A DNA stretch of 64,000 bases from Escherichia phage HEMP5, in the sequence record OR424388.1, one strand, 5' to 3'. A model generated the notes under the pieces. It was given only the letters and a program-made list of their open reading frames with translations. It made no database searches and was not told the origin of the DNA. This document shows positions 34,962-41,549 of this stretch, piece by piece (position 1 is the stretch's first letter; the number at the start of each line of letters is the position of its first letter). A program made the translations under genes and the position numbers.

Positions 34962-35264
34962 CTAAAAGAAACTTCTTTCACAATTTTTTCCACTGAACCA
35001 TGCGCTTACCGCTTTCTTAGTCTCAGGAGCAGTGTTATCCATAAACCATTCAAAGGCAGCCTTTTTATGATTCTGGAGGGCTTCTCGGGCTTTAATCTGC
35101 TCACGGTCTATTAACACTAACATATGAGCCTTTCTTGTCACCATGGGCTTCTTATGATTTTTTGAATACTCCCAGTCATTTGTCCATCGCATTGTCGTTG
35201 CGAACTTAAATACTGCTTCTTTAATTTTAGTTTCGTAAATTTCACGAGCCTTTGAGTATAACAT
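34962..35264 (-). CDS. nrdC.9: Conserved hypothetical protein (about 100 aa)
   Basis: ORF track 34962..35276. The ATG at 35264 has the best spacing from the GGAGG. Start uncertain by 4 codons. Confidence 0.72.
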   Translation of the reverse strand: MLYSKAREIYETKIKEAVFKFATTMRWTNDWEYSKNHKKPMVTRKAHMLVLIDREQIKAREALQNHKKAAFEWFMDNTAPETKKAVSAWFSGKNCERSFF

Positions 35265-35365
35265 CATTACCTCCATTCACCAGTTTAATTCTAGTCATCT
35301 TTTTAATGGCAGTCCATATAATCTATTTCTGAACTGCCTTTTTGTCATAGAAGTCCTCTTATGAA

Positions 35366-36334
35366 TTATTTCAGAAGAGTAACCTCAGCAATTTCTTCCC
35401 AACCGTTTTTGTCGGTCATAATAAAGTCAGCAAGATAAAGAGCAGTACGCAGTGAAACATTGCGTAAACGATTAACATTAACTTTCATCCATGATAATGC
35501 TTTATAAGTTTCTTCATCAGAAAGACCGCGCTTTTGCATCATGTCAGTTGAAAGAATAACATCTTCAACCCTGACCATAATTTCTTCATTAGTGTGAACA
35601 CCCAAATCCAAATAAACCGAGCGGGACACTAATGCTTGTAAATGTGGAGCAAGTTTAGTACCACGGTCTAATTCGCGGTCAATGTCAACGTTTGTGATAA
35701 AAACAATCGTTCCTTTAAATTCAAACTCACGCTCAATGCCTTTTTCTTCTAAGTAAGAAGACGCAGTGCTCCAGCAGACTTTACGGGTCTCTCCGGTGTC
35801 CAGAGCAGCTTTCAGAAGATTAAGAATGTCCATATCAGAGAAAACATCCACATCATCAATCAAAAGGACAGAATTCTCTTCACGATTATTCCAAAGCTGT
35901 TCATAAAGACCAATACCAGAGATTTTACCATTAATGCTTTTATATTCAATGTATCCAATATCATTTGCTTTATTTAAAGCTTTATCTAAAGAATACGTTT
36001 TACCAATGCCTGCCGCACCAGAGATAATTAATGAACGAATGTTTCCGTTAATAATACCATTCGTCATCATTCCCATAACATTAAATCTTTTATTAATGCG
36101 GGTTTTCATATCTTCATACGATTCTTTAACTTCTTCAACTTTTACACCATCATATGAAATGTCTGATTTGTAAACCCAAACACCGCGACGTTTACCGTCA
36201 ATTTCAACAAAAACTTTACCATCTCCTTGTGCATCTACTGGAGCATTATCTGGGAACCATTCGCCTAAGAGCTCAAAAGTTCCAGAGATTTCTTTACCGA
36301 AGTAGATACCCTTATTGATAGTTACAGTTTTCAT
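35366..36334 (-). CDS. nrdC.10: AAA+/P-loop ATPase (322 aa)
   Basis: ORF track 35366..36478, but its first 48 codons are promoter and leader. The ATG at 36334 gives MKTVTINKG... Walker A GAAGIGKT, Walker B VLLIDDVD. Confidence 0.85.
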   Translation of the reverse strand: MKTVTINKGIYFGKEISGTFELLGEWFPDNAPVDAQGDGKVFVEIDGKRRGVWVYKSDISYDGVKVEEVKESYEDMKTRINKRFNVMGMMTNGIINGNIRSLIISGAAGIGKTYSLDKALNKANDIGYIEYKSINGKISGIGLYEQLWNNREENSVLLIDDVDVFSDMDILNLLKAALDTGETRKVCWSTASSYLEEKGIEREFEFKGTIVFITNVDIDRELDRGTKLAPHLQALVSRSVYLDLGVHTNEEIMVRVEDVILSTDMMQKRGLSDEETYKALSWMKVNVNRLRNVSLRTALYLADFIMTDKNGWEEIAEVTLLK

Positions 36335-36368
36335 TTTATTCTCCAAATCCGTATCAGTTGATAGTTGT

Positions 36369-36398
36369 ATAGTACCATAAAGCTTTATGCTTGTAAAC
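36369..36398 (-). promoter_or_regulatory. T4-type early promoter (cassette family)
   Basis: Minus strand TTTTTTCACAAAATTGTTTACA-N17-GGTACTATACAACTATCAACTGATACGGATTTGGAGAATAAAATG. Near-identical to the copy at 9774-9860. Confidence 0.8.
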
Positions 36399-36420
36399 AA
36401 TTTTGTGAAAAAATTTTTGA

Positions 36421-36448
36421 AATAAAAAAGGGAGCCCGAAGGCTCCCT
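36421..36448 (-). terminator. Intrinsic terminator with UUCG loop after nrdC.11
   Basis: Minus RNA AGGGAGCC-UUCG-GGCUCCCU followed by UUUUUAUU, 1 nt after the stop. Confidence 0.8.
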
Positions 36449-36449
36449 A

Positions 36450-37463
36450 TCATTTATAATAACTTCGGTGGTTTTCAAGATAAACCTGTTCGAGGAAATT
36501 ATTCCAAAAGCTCATATCTACTGTTTTAGGCATACCATTCTTAGAAGCTTCAGTAGATGCTGCTTCTACTTGATCGACCACATCTTCCAAAAACTCTTGA
36601 ACTGTTTTAAATGGATGTTTACCCAACTTCACGTCGAGAATAAATGGAGCATCTTGGAGTGGATAAACCAAGTCACCAGTTTTGTAAATTTCCAATAGTT
36701 GAAGTCCACCACGACAAGCATGACTCAGAGCTTTCCAGTCAATACCTTCATTGGCTTCGGCCTTACGAGCACGTTCACCATATTCAGCATCTAATTTGTT
36801 CAGTGACTGCTTAAGCTCAATAAGAGAAAGCGTTGTCTGATATTTACGACCCAACACTGTGTAGAACGTTTGTGGACCTGTTTTCTCATGATTATGGAAC
36901 ACCCATTCACAGAATTCGTTTTCTGGAAGACGATGCTTAATATCTTCAACTTTAGTGCGACGCTGCTTAATAGAACCATCTTCTTGGTAATCAACCCATT
37001 GCTCAGGGATTTGATTAACTACTTTCAATACATCACGTAATGCAGCCAAACGAGAACCCTTGACACCGTATTTAGAAGCTTGCTTGCGGACATATCCTAA
37101 ATATGATTTCATGTTAGTCGTATAAAAACGAGAACGGTTGTCTTGAATAAACTTCCACACATCAGGCAAATCAGATTTAACCACTAGTTCAGGTGGAGTG
37201 TGAAGCATATCCAACGCTACAGTTTCACCATCTGCCGCTAATTTAAAGAAATACTTAAGACTGTATAGTTCATGGTCAATATCATCTTTAGTGTTTTTAG
37301 ATGATGTGTTGTTAGTGTTTTTACTCATGTGCTCTTTGACATTTCCGATAAGAATATCGCGAGCAGGAGGAACAAAGATTTCTTTAAAATCTACATCAGA
37401 TTCTGGGGTAGAAGTTCCATAAAGATGACTACCAAAATAGCTTTTCATTACTGTTTTCATCAT
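36450..37463 (-). CDS. nrdC.11: Pol-beta-superfamily nucleotidyltransferase-fold protein (337 aa)
   Basis: ORF track. N-terminal motif GSHLYGTSTPESDVDFKEIFV (G-S...D-x-D minimal NTase signature). Confidence 0.8.
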   Translation of the reverse strand: MMKTVMKSYFGSHLYGTSTPESDVDFKEIFVPPARDILIGNVKEHMSKNTNNTSSKNTKDDIDHELYSLKYFFKLAADGETVALDMLHTPPELVVKSDLPDVWKFIQDNRSRFYTTNMKSYLGYVRKQASKYGVKGSRLAALRDVLKVVNQIPEQWVDYQEDGSIKQRRTKVEDIKHRLPENEFCEWVFHNHEKTGPQTFYTVLGRKYQTTLSLIELKQSLNKLDAEYGERARKAEANEGIDWKALSHACRGGLQLLEIYKTGDLVYPLQDAPFILDVKLGKHPFKTVQEFLEDVVDQVEAASTEASKNGMPKTVDMSFWNNFLEQVYLENHRSYYK

Positions 37464-37921
37464 TCAGCCTTATATTCAATAACAGGACATACTTTAGCTT
37501 TACGCGCTTTTAAAAATTCGACGATAATAGATTTCTTGGGTTGAATAGGAGGTAAACCTTTATACGCCCTATCAATATTTTCTACATGTAAAGCATAATC
37601 CTTTTTCCATTTATAATCTTTATATTTTTCATGCAGTTGTGCAGGAATAACAAATGAACCAATAATAAGTAAAATAAGCAAAATGGCAAGTATAAATGCT
37701 GATGGAATAAGAGTCCATAAACTACCAAAAATAAGCCATTTCTGTATGATTTCTGCACAGATAATAGTTAGACCTGCGAGTATAGTACATCCGAAAAAAG
37801 AAACGAAAAATGTAGGGATAACAATAGACCAAAAGTATGCACACAGTGTCTTAGGTCGTTTCCATTCGTCGTTAAACAGTTTGAATAATTTATAGTGCCA
37901 AGAGTTTTCATTAATAATCAT
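37460..37921 (-). CDS. Multi-pass membrane protein (153 aa)
   Basis: ORF track. Three hydrophobic segments. Stop overlaps the nrdC.11 ATG (ATGA). Confidence 0.78.
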   Translation of the reverse strand: MIINENSWHYKLFKLFNDEWKRPKTLCAYFWSIVIPTFFVSFFGCTILAGLTIICAEIIQKWLIFGSLWTLIPSAFILAILLILLIIGSFVIPAQLHEKYKDYKWKKDYALHVENIDRAYKGLPPIQPKKSIIVEFLKARKAKVCPVIEYKAE

Positions 37922-37923
37922 AA

Positions 37924-38445
37924 TTATCCTTTCATTGAAGGTGTAACAGTTGTTAAATACTTAATCATAGCTTCAGCTTCTGATTTTGATAATGAAATTT
38001 CTCCATTGTTTTGACGAATAGAAATAAAATCCGGATGACGGTCACCACCAGCTTTTAAAACACACATATAAGTATCAGTTTCATCTTCAATATCTGAAAT
38101 GATTGAAGCAGTTCCACATGAATGTGGTTTTTGATAAATCAATACAGCTTTTCTTCCACCGTTTGACTGTTCATAAACTTTTAACACATCAAACAAATCG
38201 CTTCTTTTATCAATAGCTAAGATGTTGTTTTCATCTTCAATATTAAATCCTTCGGATACTTCATAAAGTGTCACCCATAAATCACCAATATCAATAACAG
38301 CGTTCACTTTTCCATGACTTTCAAGAGCATTACAAATTTTCTTAATTTCATCATAACTCATTTTAATAATATCATCTCCTTGAATAAGGAAGATGTCATT
38401 TTTAAATTCAACGCGAATTAAACCACTTCCACTTGAAATAAACAT
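37924..38445 (-). CDS. Hypothetical protein, tandem paralog A (173 aa)
   Basis: ORF track. Shares GFNIEDE and SKSEAEAMIKYLTTVTPSM with the next gene. Confidence 0.78.
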   Translation of the reverse strand: MFISSGSGLIRVEFKNDIFLIQGDDIIKMSYDEIKKICNALESHGKVNAVIDIGDLWVTLYEVSEGFNIEDENNILAIDKRSDLFDVLKVYEQSNGGRKAVLIYQKPHSCGTASIISDIEDETDTYMCVLKAGGDRHPDFISIRQNNGEISLSKSEAEAMIKYLTTVTPSMKG

Positions 38446-38451
38446 ATTTCC

Positions 38452-39009
38452 TCACTTTGAAATCATAGTTGGAATGACAGAATCAAGATAAGTCTTTAGC
38501 GCAATAGCTTCGTCTTTGGTAAATGTGACAATATGCGATCGAAAATCATCAATTTGACGAATAGTTAAGACATCTCCATCTTCATAACATTTTGATACGT
38601 TTAAAACAGTTTCATCATTATGATTGCAAGCGTTAGTAATAATAGCATTGCAATTTTTAAACCATTTTAAACTATGTTTTCTTTCATTAGAATAATAAAA
38701 ATATTTAATCTTATCTATAAAACTGTCCCAATGAATAACTGATAGGCATATTGACTCGCTTTCAATATTAAATCCTGGGCATGAAGAATAAAAATGAATT
38801 TTGTGCTCATCATTGATGCTTACTATTTTATCAGTATAAGGATATTCAATTTGGGTTAAATGAATGATTTCACTAGGCGTAAAATATAGCATATCGTCTT
38901 CTTGTGTCAAACGATACATATTATTTACTTTTTCTATAGCTAATTCACCAAAAAGCGGACTAACTTCTAATACTAATCGTTTCATATTGATTCTCTTCGA
39001 CTCACCCAC
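38452..39009 (-). CDS. Hypothetical protein, tandem paralog B (185 aa from GTG, or 177 aa from ATG at 38985)
   Basis: ORF track. The GTG at 39009 lies 9 nt after AAGGAG. Shares GFNIESE and TKDEAIALKTYLDSVIPTM with paralog A. Confidence 0.78.
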   Translation of the reverse strand: MGESKRINMKRLVLEVSPLFGELAIEKVNNMYRLTQEDDMLYFTPSEIIHLTQIEYPYTDKIVSINDEHKIHFYSSCPGFNIESESICLSVIHWDSFIDKIKYFYYSNERKHSLKWFKNCNAIITNACNHNDETVLNVSKCYEDGDVLTIRQIDDFRSHIVTFTKDEAIALKTYLDSVIPTMISK

Positions 39010-39011
39010 AA

Positions 39012-39116
39012 TTACATACTCCTTTGAATAATATCAATAATGTTGTTCACCAGATTATAAGTAAACATTGGATAATTATATTGAATCATCACATACACAA
39101 CAAACAAAACTTTCAT
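39012..39116 (-). CDS. Possible 34-aa leader peptide/ORF
   Basis: First ATG after the early promoter at 39145-39174. MKVLFVVYVMIQYNYPMFTYNLVNNIIDIIQRSM. Confidence 0.3.
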   Translation of the reverse strand: MKVLFVVYVMIQYNYPMFTYNLVNNIIDIIQRSM

Positions 39117-39144
39117 TCTCTTCTCCTTGGCAGTTGACAAGATT

Positions 39145-39174
39145 ACTATATCATAACCTTGCCAACTTGTAAAC
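39145..39174 (-). promoter_or_regulatory. T4-type early promoter
   Basis: Minus strand GGTTTACA-N17-(A)TATAGT. Confidence 0.7.
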
Positions 39175-39176
39175 CA

Positions 39177-39332
39177 TTAAATGACGTTTTCAATAAAATT
39201 CTGAAGCTTTGTGTGAGCATCAACCATGATTTTCATTTCTTCCTTTGCGAAAGCTGTACCTCTTTCCCTAGCAGAATACTCATAGTCAGAAACTGCATTA
39301 GCATATTCTTCAATTAGCTTCATTAAAAACAT
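39177..39332 (-). CDS. Small helical protein (51 aa)
   Basis: Hand translation MFLMKLIEEYANAVSDYEYSARERGTAFAKEEMKIMVDAHTKLQNFIENVI. Fills the gap between 39340 and the promoter. Confidence 0.5.
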   Translation of the reverse strand: MFLMKLIEEYANAVSDYEYSARERGTAFAKEEMKIMVDAHTKLQNFIENVI

Positions 39333-39339
39333 CTGCTTT

Positions 39340-39534
39340 TCAGTTTTCATTATTCCACCTAATCATTTCAAGATATTGAACTAACTTAGCTTTGGATTTA
39401 TCCAAATCCTTTTTAGCTGCTTCTATACCATCGTATGAGTATCCTTCACAATGCTCAACTGCTAATTGATATGAATCTATTTCAACATCACGTGCTAATT
39501 TAATAATTTTTTCAAACTGTTCACGTGTTAGCAT
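39340..39534 (-). CDS. Small helical protein (64 aa)
   Basis: ORF track. Confidence 0.7.
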   Translation of the reverse strand: MLTREQFEKIIKLARDVEIDSYQLAVEHCEGYSYDGIEAAKKDLDKSKAKLVQYLEMIRWNNEN

Positions 39535-39536
39535 AC

Positions 39537-39740
39537 TTAAACTCTCGTATTATGATCGATAATTTCATCAAGAAACATATCTAAAGCTTCTACAGCATTA
39601 TCAACTTTAGCTTCAAATTTTTCAATACCTTTATTTGCAATGCCTGCCGAAAACCAAGCAAAGTCACTAAGTTCCTCATCTGCTTTGCGAATTAAAGCTA
39701 CCAATTCTTTAATTTTATCTGCTTGTTCAATTCTAGCCAT
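39537..39740 (-). CDS. Small helical protein (67 aa)
   Basis: ORF track 39537..39776. The ATG at 39740 ([19 protein letters not shown]...) overlaps the upstream stop (TAATG). Confidence 0.65.
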   Translation of the reverse strand: MARIEQADKIKELVALIRKADEELSDFAWFSAGIANKGIEKFEAKVDNAVEALDMFLDEIIDHNTRV

Positions 39741-39928
39741 TATTCCACCACATATGAAAGAGAGAATATTGCACACGCCATATGAGTTGCAGCTTCATCA
39801 CACATATCATAACGTTTCTTAAGAAGTTCTACAAGTTCTTCACTAGTAACTTCATCCATGTCGACGAAAAAATCACCATTAATGATGACGTAGATATTTC
39901 CTTCTTGATTGAGTGCTTCAATTTTCAT
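39740..39928 (-). CDS. Small acidic protein (62 aa)
   Basis: ORF track 39740..39973. The ATG at 39928 follows GAGGAGAACATC and an early promoter ([19 protein letters not shown]...). Confidence 0.65.
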
Positions 39929-39956
39929 GATGTTCTCCTCTTTATCCGATGGTTGT

Positions 39957-39986
39957 ATAGTATCACAGCTCAAATTGAAAGTAAAC
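39957..39986 (-). promoter_or_regulatory. T4-type early promoter
   Basis: Minus strand AGTTTAC-N17-(GA)TACTATACAAC. Confidence 0.75.
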
Positions 39987-40002
39987 TGGTAAAATGAAAA
40001 AA

Positions 40003-40018
40003 GTCTCCCGAAGGAGAC
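40003..40018 (-). terminator. C(UUCG)G hairpin after rI.-1
   Basis: Minus RNA GUCUCC-UUCG-GGAGAC followed by a U-rich run. Confidence 0.7.
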
Positions 40019-40023
40019 TAATG

Positions 40024-40410
40024 TTATTCGAGGGAAAGAAGATATTTGCTCTGGTAAAACATCCCAGTAATATCATCTATCGTGCTTTGAATAGCTGGAG
40101 GCATTTCTTTATAAATGCTGTTAGATTGGTCTAGTATGTGATCAATCATTCTAATTGTGTCGGTAGGAAGTTTACTGGCATCTGGAATAGAAGGCGTGTA
40201 TTTTCTACCAGAATACCCCAAATATTGCTCACCAAATTTATCAATCAAATCTGGCAACTCAGAGAAAATAAAATCGTATGCTTTGTGTCTAGCATAACTT
40301 TTAGTTTCAAAATGCGCAGAATGAAAATAAGCTTGTGCAGCCATTAATAAACCTAAGTATTCATCTGCCTTTGAAGGTTTTCCACTTTGTGAAAAGTCGC
40401 TGAATTTCAT
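40024..40410 (-). CDS. rI.-1: Conserved hypothetical protein adjacent to rI (128 aa)
   Basis: ORF track. ATGA overlap with the rI stop. Position as in T4. Confidence 0.8.
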
Positions 40411-40700
40411 TCAGTCTCCAATTTAATGTTCATAATTCTAGCGTATGATTGTGCCATCTCCGCGCCTCGTTCTATACATTCAAAATCGGAAGAGCACGGG
40501 TCATTTTTATAAGTCGTTCGCATAAAACTATAGAACTGTTCAGATGATTCTACGCTTTTATTTTCAAAAAGCATATAAACGTGTCTAATACCAGATTCCA
40601 TAAATTTATCAAAATGAGGATCGACATTCGCTTCAATTGGTGGAGATAAAGCAAACGCTAATCCTAGCATGGCAAATAGTGCCGTTGCTTTTAAGGCCAT
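40407..40700 (-). CDS. rI: Lysis-inhibition regulator RI (antiholin)
   Basis: 97 aa, MALKATALFAMLGLAFALSPPIEANVDPHFDKFMESGIRHVYMLFENKS... Matches T4 RI. Confidence 0.95.
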   Translation of the reverse strand: MALKATALFAMLGLAFALSPPIEANVDPHFDKFMESGIRHVYMLFENKSVESSEQFYSFMRTTYKNDPCSSDFECIERGAEMAQSYARIMNIKLETE

Positions 40701-40712
40701 AAAGGCCTCCTA

Positions 40713-40925
40713 TCATTTTTGTCCTGTATTTACTTTATGCCGATGCACGGCCTTAACTTTATCAAGGTATTTTTCAAAATTTCGCAATCTAGTATAGTCT
40801 GCCGGAGATTGGTTGAGTGATACTTCTCGACGCAAAGCTGAAATGATATTTCCAACTTCCCTACGAATTTCATCTAATTGAAGAACAGTAAGATTGCGAA
40901 GTTGCTTTTCAGTTAATTGTAGCAT
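40713..40925 (-). CDS. rI.1: Conserved hypothetical protein (70 aa)
   Basis: ORF track. Synteny between rI and tk. Confidence 0.78.
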
Positions 40926-40967
40926 ATATACCCCTTTAGTTAGATAAACCTATTTATAACTTTTGCA

Positions 40968-41549
40968 CTAACCGAGCTTTTTAGTTAATTCATTCCAATG
41001 TTTTCTACACAAAGAAACATAAATTTCATCACCAATACAGATTTGATTACCTTCTTTAACTGGTGTTCCATCTTCCATTAATCGAGCTGTCATAATAGCT
41101 TTTTTACCACAATGACAAACTGCCTTTAGTTCAATAAGTTTATCTGCAATCGCCAAAAGTTCTTTAGAACCTTCAAATAATTTTCCAGCGAAATCAGTCC
41201 TTAGCCCATAAGCCATAACAGGAACATTATATGTATCAACAATTCGACTTAATTGATGCACCTGTTCAGTTTTTAAAAACTGAGCTTCATCTACAAATAC
41301 ACAATGAATATCTTTTTGTGCTTCAGCCCATTTATAGAACTCAAAAATATCCATATCATCCGTAATAATATTCGCTTCCTGCTTAATTCCAATGCGAGAA
41401 ACGACTTCACAGACAGAATCGCGAGTATCAATAGCAGGCTTAAGAACTAATACACCCATTCCGCGTTCTTTATAATTATGTGCAGCAGTCAAAAGAGAAG
41501 CAGATTTTCCAGCATTCATTGCTGCGTAAGTAAAAATTAAACTCGCCAT
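40968..41549 (-). CDS. tk: Thymidine kinase
   Basis: 193 aa. P-loop MNAGKS and C-terminal zinc-binding cysteines CHCGKK...C..C. Confidence 0.96.
   Translation of the reverse strand: MASLIFTYAAMNAGKSASLLTAAHNYKERGMGVLVLKPAIDTRDSVCEVVSRIGIKQEANIITDDMDIFEFYKWAEAQKDIHCVFVDEAQFLKTEQVHQLSRIVDTYNVPVMAYGLRTDFAGKLFEGSKELLAIADKLIELKAVCHCGKKAIMTARLMEDGTPVKEGNQICIGDEIYVSLCRKHWNELTKKLG

Follow-up and report, generated by a model that had tools for sequence, protein, structure and literature searches.

The window analyzed here is a stretch of 64,000 nucleotides (nt) from Escherichia phage HEMP5 (sequence record OR424388.1), and this work concerns the interval between its nrdC.11 and mobD.1 genes, the slot that holds the homing endonuclease gene mobD in phage T4. 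A query of 4.4 kilobases (kb) around this interval matched 752 phage records, 430 of them at a coverage of at least 80%; the closest were Yersinia phages PYps32T and PYps47T (best 99.6%). The window is part of a Tequatrovirus (T4-like) genome. The interval falls in the variable early-gene region between tk/rI and nrdC, and we consider it likely that it represents the mobD-free majority allele of the nrdC.11-mobD.1 interval in Tequatrovirus, with the protein mechanism proposed below. The features at the locus are as follows (window coordinates; protein lengths in amino acids, aa).

36450-37463, minus strand: nrdC.11, encoding an RlaP-family (PF10127) nucleotidyltransferase; downstream neighbour of the 153-aa gene
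37460-37921, minus strand: gene for a putative small inner-membrane protein of 153 aa (phrog_944), without a T4 counterpart
37924-38445, minus strand: gene for a 173-aa diverged mobD.1 paralog (y05I family), without a T4 counterpart
38452-39009, minus strand: mobD.1 ortholog, 185 aa, with a GTG start (an alternative ATG at 38985 gives 177 aa)
37465-38426: 962-bp segment without a T4 counterpart, delimited by the blastn breakpoints against T4
38427-38445, minus strand: first 19 nt of the 173-aa gene (ATGTTTATTTCAAGTGGAA, MFISSG), kept in T4 as the head of a stub

Replacement borders and states of the locus

Comparison of the window with T4 by blastn gave a collinear alignment up to window position 37464 and again from 38427. 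These flanks enclose 962 bp in the window and 808 bp, with mobD, in T4; the breakpoints at window 37464/37465 and 38426/38427 correspond to 10450/10451 and 11258/11259 of the T4 locus (L001). Only the 153-aa membrane gene and the 173-aa paralog are missing from T4. What T4 retains of the 173-aa gene, directly past the mobD.1 stop, is its ribosome-binding site together with its first 19 nt (ATGTTTATTTCAAGTGGAA, MFISSG), which now begin a 23-codon open reading frame (ORF; L001 11206-11277, minus strand; translation MFISSGTDMCYKCKAKLNETKNQ*) whose TGA overlaps the ATG of mobD (ATGA). Because T4 keeps this 19-nt stub, mobD is taken to have displaced the cassette and not the reverse; the stub is direct sequence evidence for an ancestor of T4 that still carried the 173-aa gene, and for the loss of this gene, along with the membrane gene, to the mobD segment. 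The insertion site of mobD has been listed as nrdC.11/mobD.1, with its activity not determined and its target unknown (PMC2988022). As a separate observation, translation of mobD may be coupled to what is left of the gene whose place it took. Within mobD.1, the 3' half beside the insertion site (L001 11300-11600; window ~38470-38770) is also the most diverged stretch between tk and nrdC.10, with 84-89% identity compared to 93-100% elsewhere, both for T4 versus phage G28 and for T4 versus the window, which could reflect selection near the MobD cleavage site or a relaxed constraint on the C-terminal domain.

When phage records were counted by segment or junction match, the 962-bp segment was found at a coverage of at least 80% in 426 records and the full mobD segment in 54, 47 of which were at least 99% identical. 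A query for the T4-type nrdC.11-mobD-mobD.1 junction matched contiguously in 47 records, and the next-ranked records among the matches listed (n=13) had the flanks in two pieces spanning 1565 bp, that is, the flanks plus 962 bp. An earlier reading of the window from sequence only had proposed that its genes stand in for mobD, and the two states do alternate at the borders found in T4. Between G28 and T4 the mobD segment is 99-100% identical and the DNA just outside it 84-94%, which is the pattern of a recently spreading mobile unit.

Other arrangements of the same genes were found as well. Mosigvirus PhAPEC2 has the order mobD.1-membrane gene-nrdC.11 without the second paralog, and the membrane gene abuts nrdC.11 in 7 of the 9 T4-like viral contigs and lies within ~550 bp of it in the other two. 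In one metagenomic phage contig (L010), the only y05I gene is of the 173 type (P0010, 56% identical), with the membrane gene and nrdC.11 after it, which shows that this type can occupy the locus by itself. In several contigs the only y05I gene is a hybrid (P0011) consisting of the N-terminal part of mobD.1 and the C-terminal part of the 173-type gene, joined around the shared NDET/EDET stretch (L011-L013; gene at 3001-3540 in L011 and L012). In phage TadeuszReichstein mobD.5 is fused to the C-domain of the 173-aa protein (L004 2961-3251) and the membrane gene is truncated, and fusions of mobD.1 to nrdC.11 occur in one T4 record and one metagenome contig (proteins P0072 and P0074).

The stub, the position of the membrane gene in other genera and the identity of mobD between T4 and G28 together identify mobD as the lineage-specific invader and the cassette as the common, older state. 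In T4 and ~46 other phage records, mobD takes the place of the 173-aa and membrane genes, leaving the 19-nt stub; a phage thus loses both genes upon the arrival of mobD, and the window is accordingly a potential recipient allele.

The encoded proteins and their neighbourhood

The 185-aa protein is 85% identical to T4 MobD.1 and is identified by this match as its ortholog (UniProt Y05I). BLASTP between the 173-aa and 185-aa proteins gave 26% identity over the full length (E 8e-10), and both matched PF24449 (T4_y05I_N) and PF24448 (T4_y05I_C) in N-to-C order and above the gathering cut-offs of 24.9 and 27 bits, respectively, with 119.6 and 82.7 bits for the 173-aa protein and 132.6 and 73.9 bits (E 9e-39 and 1.4e-20) for the 185-aa protein. 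T4 MobD.1 shows the same pattern, and phrog_1502 was matched by both window proteins. They are recognized by these matches as true paralogs, as the sequence-only reading had held, and they contain the two motifs to which it pointed, GFNIE(D/S)E and the C-terminal (S/T)K(S/D)EA.A(M/L).(K/T)YL..V.P(S/T)M. Its remark that no recognisable motif was visible stood for nucleases, as none of the three window proteins gave an HNH or other nuclease match (T4 MobD matches HNH weakly); it failed for families in general, since these proteins belong to curated families of Pfam and PHROG. MobD.1 gave the Pfam family its name, and the neighbouring 34-aa mobD.2 is Pfam 'Y05J'.

In a distance tree the 173-type clade is the deepest branch of the family and lies outside all positional mobD.1 orthologs of several genera; because of this branching the tandem pair is judged not to be a recent duplication and would derive either from an old duplication or from a second copy acquired from another T4-like lineage. 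The y05I family is very small, with 21 representatives at E <= 0.001 among 1.84 billion cluster representatives, and these include free-standing C-domain proteins of 65-83 aa. The mobD.1 branch escaped a word-indexed protein search that used only the 173-aa protein, and was recovered by alignment-based searches. A sequence search of the PDB with both paralogs returned nothing; literature searches on y05I gave nothing relevant, and those on mobD.1 only a 2010 review. The pair of genes shares an exact 16-nt repeat, TTCAATATTAAATCCT (encoding GFNIE, minus strand), at 38236-38251 and 38761-38776, one per paralog, although the proteins are only 26% identical; this could reflect codon bias on a conserved motif or, alternatively, microhomology for recombination between the two copies. 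T4 nrdC.7 (membrane) and nrdC.8 (175 aa) were considered as a second membrane and y05I pair and rejected, as nrdC.8 had no y05I match and nrdC.7 showed no significant similarity to the 153-aa protein.

In the hydropathy profile of the 153-aa protein, residues 25-56 and 62-97 form two long hydrophobic segments, divided only by E57 and K61, and a poor AlphaFold2 (AF2) model (predicted local distance difference test score, pLDDT, 64; predicted template modelling score, pTM, 0.29) has two long helices, 26-64 and 68-120. The three transmembrane helices proposed earlier are not supported. With lysine-rich ends on either side of the hydrophobic segments, the protein is probably a two-helix hairpin whose two termini are cytoplasmic. 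It matches phrog_944 (E 4.6e-50; positions 85-229 of a 235-position profile) and has its hydrophobic helices between an N-terminal motif, NSWHY...PK.LCAYFW, and a C-terminal motif, KA.KAKVCP.IE, which place it in PHROG 944. Invariant in homologs down to 27-30% identity are N6-S7-W8-H9-Y10, P23, L26-C27, Y29-F30-W31, K143 and C145-P146. The hairpin would present these conserved cytoplasmic N- and C-terminal motifs, with the invariant His9, Cys27 and Cys145, and it is speculation that these three residues could lie close together. Pfam gave only noise for this protein, and Foldseek of its model against viral structures returned only uncharacterised homologs.

The stop of the 153-aa ORF overlaps the start of nrdC.11 by ATGA, an overlap already noted in the sequence-only reading, and nrdC.11 is on this arrangement translationally coupled to the 153-aa gene. 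Relatives of the 153-aa protein occur in many large myoviruses, and no nrdC.11 homolog was detected within 3 kb of the membrane gene in those that are not T4-like. A distant T4-like lineage (loci L006, 4507-5390, and L007, 2966-3849) has tandem membrane paralogs of 165 and 129 aa, coupled by ATGA, which sit after an antiholin gene and are followed by a 94-aa gene and an RlaP nucleotidyltransferase; no y05I gene was detectable at these two loci. The 165-aa protein, upstream of the remote membrane homolog in L006, was tried as a y05I relative and rejected (hhalign probability 0.1), being a second member of the membrane family.

All genes of the region lie on the minus strand and are transcribed in the order tk, rI.1, rI, rI.-1, mobD.5...mobD.2, the 185-aa ORF, the 173-aa ORF, the 153-aa ORF, nrdC.11 and nrdC.10. 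The neighbouring genes and the limits of the mobD.5...nrdC.11 block are the following.

40968-41549, minus strand: tk
40407-40700, minus strand: rI
40024-40410, minus strand: rI.-1
40002-40019, minus strand: intrinsic-terminator-like hairpin after rI.-1, the upstream limit of the block
36429-36448, minus strand: intrinsic-terminator-like hairpin (GGGAGCC-TTCG-GGCTCCC and a T run) directly past the nrdC.11 stop, the downstream limit of the block

The three ORFs are closely packed, and each is preceded by a plausible Shine-Dalgarno sequence, that of the 185-aa GTG start being AAAGGAG. The ratio of nonsynonymous to synonymous substitution rates (dN/dS) against two relatives of ~92% DNA identity was 0.21-0.27 for the 153-aa gene, 0.13 for the 173-aa gene and 0.11-0.16 for the mobD.1 ortholog, and because of these values (0.11-0.27) the three ORFs are real genes under purifying selection. 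In the laboratory, the T4 interval from nrdC.11 to mobD.3 can be deleted (PMC9825161), and T4 moreover lacks two of the three genes; all of them are thus dispensable, accessory genes that are kept by selection in nature. To that extent the accessory module of the sequence-only reading was borne out, while nothing in the PADLOC and NCBIfam searches pointed to the toxicity or phage exclusion that it had offered for testing.

The T4 late-promoter motif (TATAAATA) was not found in the interval, and a sigma-70 scan of it gave promoter-like sites at no more than the shuffled expectation. The best sigma-70-like site (38883-38910, minus strand; TTGACA, 16 nt, TATATT, with TG ahead of the -10 element; 11/12) lies inside the 5' part of the mobD.1 ortholog, and transcripts from it would begin within the gene. 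Across 35000-41000, the one match from Rfam was to L20_leader, below threshold and located on the terminator hairpin; it was taken as chance. The mechanically called ORF of nrdC.10 (370 aa, TTG at 36478, minus strand) is probably over-extended: the extension runs through the nrdC.11 stop, the terminator hairpin (36448-36429) and a promoter-like site (36397-36369), the PHROG match begins at residue 49, and a GGAG with an ATG at 36334 gives MKTVTINKG... and ~322 aa, like T4 NrdC.10. In public records the mobD.x genes, including mobD.1 orthologs, are misnamed 'molybdopterin-guanine dinucleotide biosynthesis protein MobD', nrdC.11 'thioredoxin' and a small gene 'helicase loader', and the T2 homologs of the membrane protein and MobD.1 'prohead core protein' and 'prohead core scaffold protein', respectively; these names appear to stem from name transfer and not from homology.

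Predicted fold and competing explanations

An AF2 model of the 173-aa protein, built from a 22-sequence alignment, has a confident N-domain (pLDDT 80-92) with two beta4-alpha units, and the domain is predicted to consist of two beta-beta-beta-beta-alpha repeats packed together in the PC4-like/PUR/Whirly manner. The top structural matches of the model are nucleic-acid binders (Pur-alpha, MRP1/2, Whirly and PC4). Proteins of the PC4-like class build their nucleic-acid-binding domain from two repeats, which may belong to the same chain or to different ones, and Pur-alpha uses both arrangements (PMC7549692). Alignment of repeat 1 with the C-domain by hhalign gave a weak profile match (E 0.0022; LTQ.DD...T.SEI against IRQ.DD...TK.EA). 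From the N-domain repeats and this weak match we infer a three-repeat, Pur-alpha-like layout, in which the first two repeats of the y05I proteins would form an intramolecular PC4-like/PUR/Whirly domain and the third, with its (S/T)K.EA.A...YL..V.P.M helix, would pair with the third repeat of a second chain, as in Pur-alpha, to give homodimers or MobD.1/173-aa heterodimers. We tentatively propose, as the likeliest role, that the y05I proteins may bind single-stranded RNA or DNA in early infection. The curators of Pfam label the family as putative transcription factor, a label that the PC4-like fold probably underlies.

Several points weigh against this reading of the locus and its proteins. The C-terminal part of the 173-aa model consists of strands and a helix at low pLDDT (40-67), so that the third repeat and dimerisation are weakly supported, and the membrane model is poor, as given above. 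Both y05I proteins are acidic (isoelectric points 4.7 and 5.3), and many of the conserved residues are acidic (E13, D25, E33, E70 and E72), an uncommon feature in a nucleic-acid binder. Pfam gave no match to PUR, Whirly or PC4 at E <= 1, leaving a likeness at the level of the fold, and no experiment on MobD.1 came up in the literature searched. The record counts rest on segment or junction matches, and any single record might carry mobD and the cassette together elsewhere in its genome.

In a serious rival, the Whirly/PUR-like scaffold of the y05I proteins binds protein instead of nucleic acid, as SsgA-like proteins do; as acidic early proteins, they would bind or imitate the substrate of some host or phage protein, with the paralogs having different partners. 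As the best structural matches are nucleic-acid binders, the Pfam label is that of a putative transcription factor and no partner is known, we regard a protein-binding role as somewhat doubtful, serious as it is. A wider proposal would have the y05I protein or proteins, the membrane protein, NrdC.11 and NrdC.10 (an AAA ATPase) work together as a single module; this might serve RNA repair or counter-defence, for example, with damaged RNA held by the PUR-like protein. NrdC.11 matches RlaP (PF10127, E 3.1e-11; phrog_388), T4 NrdC.11 has been placed in this family, and its bacterial members extend damaged RNA 3' ends by one or two nucleotides (PMC12776372); MRP1/2, which share the fold, are RNA matchmakers (PMC7549692), the order y05I-membrane gene-nrdC.11-nrdC.10 is kept across several T4-like genera, and the membrane gene and nrdC.11 are ATGA-coupled. 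Against this, T4 has nrdC.11 and nrdC.10 but neither the membrane protein nor the 173-aa paralog, more distant phages have the membrane family without an RlaP gene within 3 kb, a terminator and a promoter lie between nrdC.11 and nrdC.10, the T4 stretch from nrdC.11 to mobD.3 is deletable (PMC9825161), and conserved order without functional linkage is common in T4-like early regions. A joint RNA-related function of the neighbourhood is thus possible but unsupported, and a single module is in our judgement unlikely. Its most specific form, in which a MobD.1/173-aa heterodimer would bind RNA and work with NrdC.11, and perhaps the membrane protein and NrdC.10, as an RNA-repair or counter-defence unit that T4 partly lost to a homing endonuclease, is more improbable still; if it were true, the full Pur-alpha architecture would be seen for the first time in a prokaryotic virus, in the y05I proteins.

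Two further explanations fare worse. By analogy with rI/rI.-1 and with T4 Imm and Sp, the membrane protein could be a lysis-timing or superinfection-exclusion factor, being a small inner-membrane protein whose gene lies ~2.5 kb downstream of rI and whose distant T4-like relatives stand as two tandem copies right after an antiholin gene. T4, which lacks this protein, has normal lysis inhibition, and no holin, antiholin, Imm or Sp family matched its sequence; we consider this role very unlikely. The other explanation develops the reading made from sequence only: an accessory cassette specific to this lineage, toxic or phage-excluding, would have been inserted in this phage at the mobD slot. The alternation of two states at identical borders and the variability of the region, with its hybrids and deletions, would be in keeping with an insertion. 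The proposed direction is reversed by the stub of the 173-aa gene in T4 and by the membrane gene at the same position in other genera; the cassette is moreover the majority state (426 records versus 47), and the 185-aa gene, one of the three that were to replace mobD, is mobD.1 itself (85% identical in T4), which leaves only the 173-aa and 153-aa genes in that part. No flanking repeats of the kind expected for a transposable unit came up in a repeat search, and among anti-phage defence and toxin families PADLOC gave no matches and NCBIfam only noise (E ~0.09). Such an insertion is largely refuted by the stub and the distribution, and it is highly improbable.

The preferred reading thus remains that of a mobD-free majority allele with PC4-like/PUR proteins. 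The genes themselves are already known as hypothetical proteins of curated families, annotated in hundreds of genomes, and the region is known to be variable; what is added here is the precise location of the replacement borders, the 19-nt stub that T4 retains, a census of the states of the locus and a fold hypothesis for the MobD.1 family, a three-repeat PC4-like/PUR protein. These results correct a T4-centred view, as T4 is the derived genome at this locus and most relatives keep the two genes lost to mobD. The window-type allele would be a natural substrate for locating the MobD cleavage site, whose target is listed as unknown (PMC2988022), and the conserved neighbourhood with NrdC.11 points to hosts with RNA-targeting defences for a phenotype.

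Comparison with known systems

The y05I proteins differ from the Pur-alpha/PC4-like superfamily (Whirly/PBF-2 p24, MRP1/MRP2, PC4/Sub1) in being acidic, whereas its members are basic or neutral, in having no Pfam-detectable sequence similarity to it, and in a third repeat that is modelled at low confidence. Bacterial Pur-alpha also occurs in a single-repeat form (PMC7549692), like the free-standing y05I C-domain proteins of 65-83 aa. SsgA-like proteins (PDB 3cm1) are cell-division proteins of actinomycetes that have no sequence relation to y05I, and nothing here suggests a part in cell division. The membrane protein belongs fully to the RB69 ORF104c/PHROG 944 family, whose Mosigvirus form is ~50% identical and sits at the same place beside nrdC.11, and no member of this family has a known function. 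With T4 MobD.1, the 185-aa protein shares orthology and the position upstream of the insertion site; the 173-aa protein shares the same two Pfam domains and the same length, but only 26-28% identity, and its gene has no T4 counterpart. T4 mobD, a free-standing HNH homing endonuclease gene, lies on the strand of the cassette and in its exact slot, with mobD.1 and nrdC.11 on either side; it too is coupled by an ATGA overlap, to what precedes it. The two are unrelated in sequence: mobD is the mobile invader, and the window genes are what it displaces.

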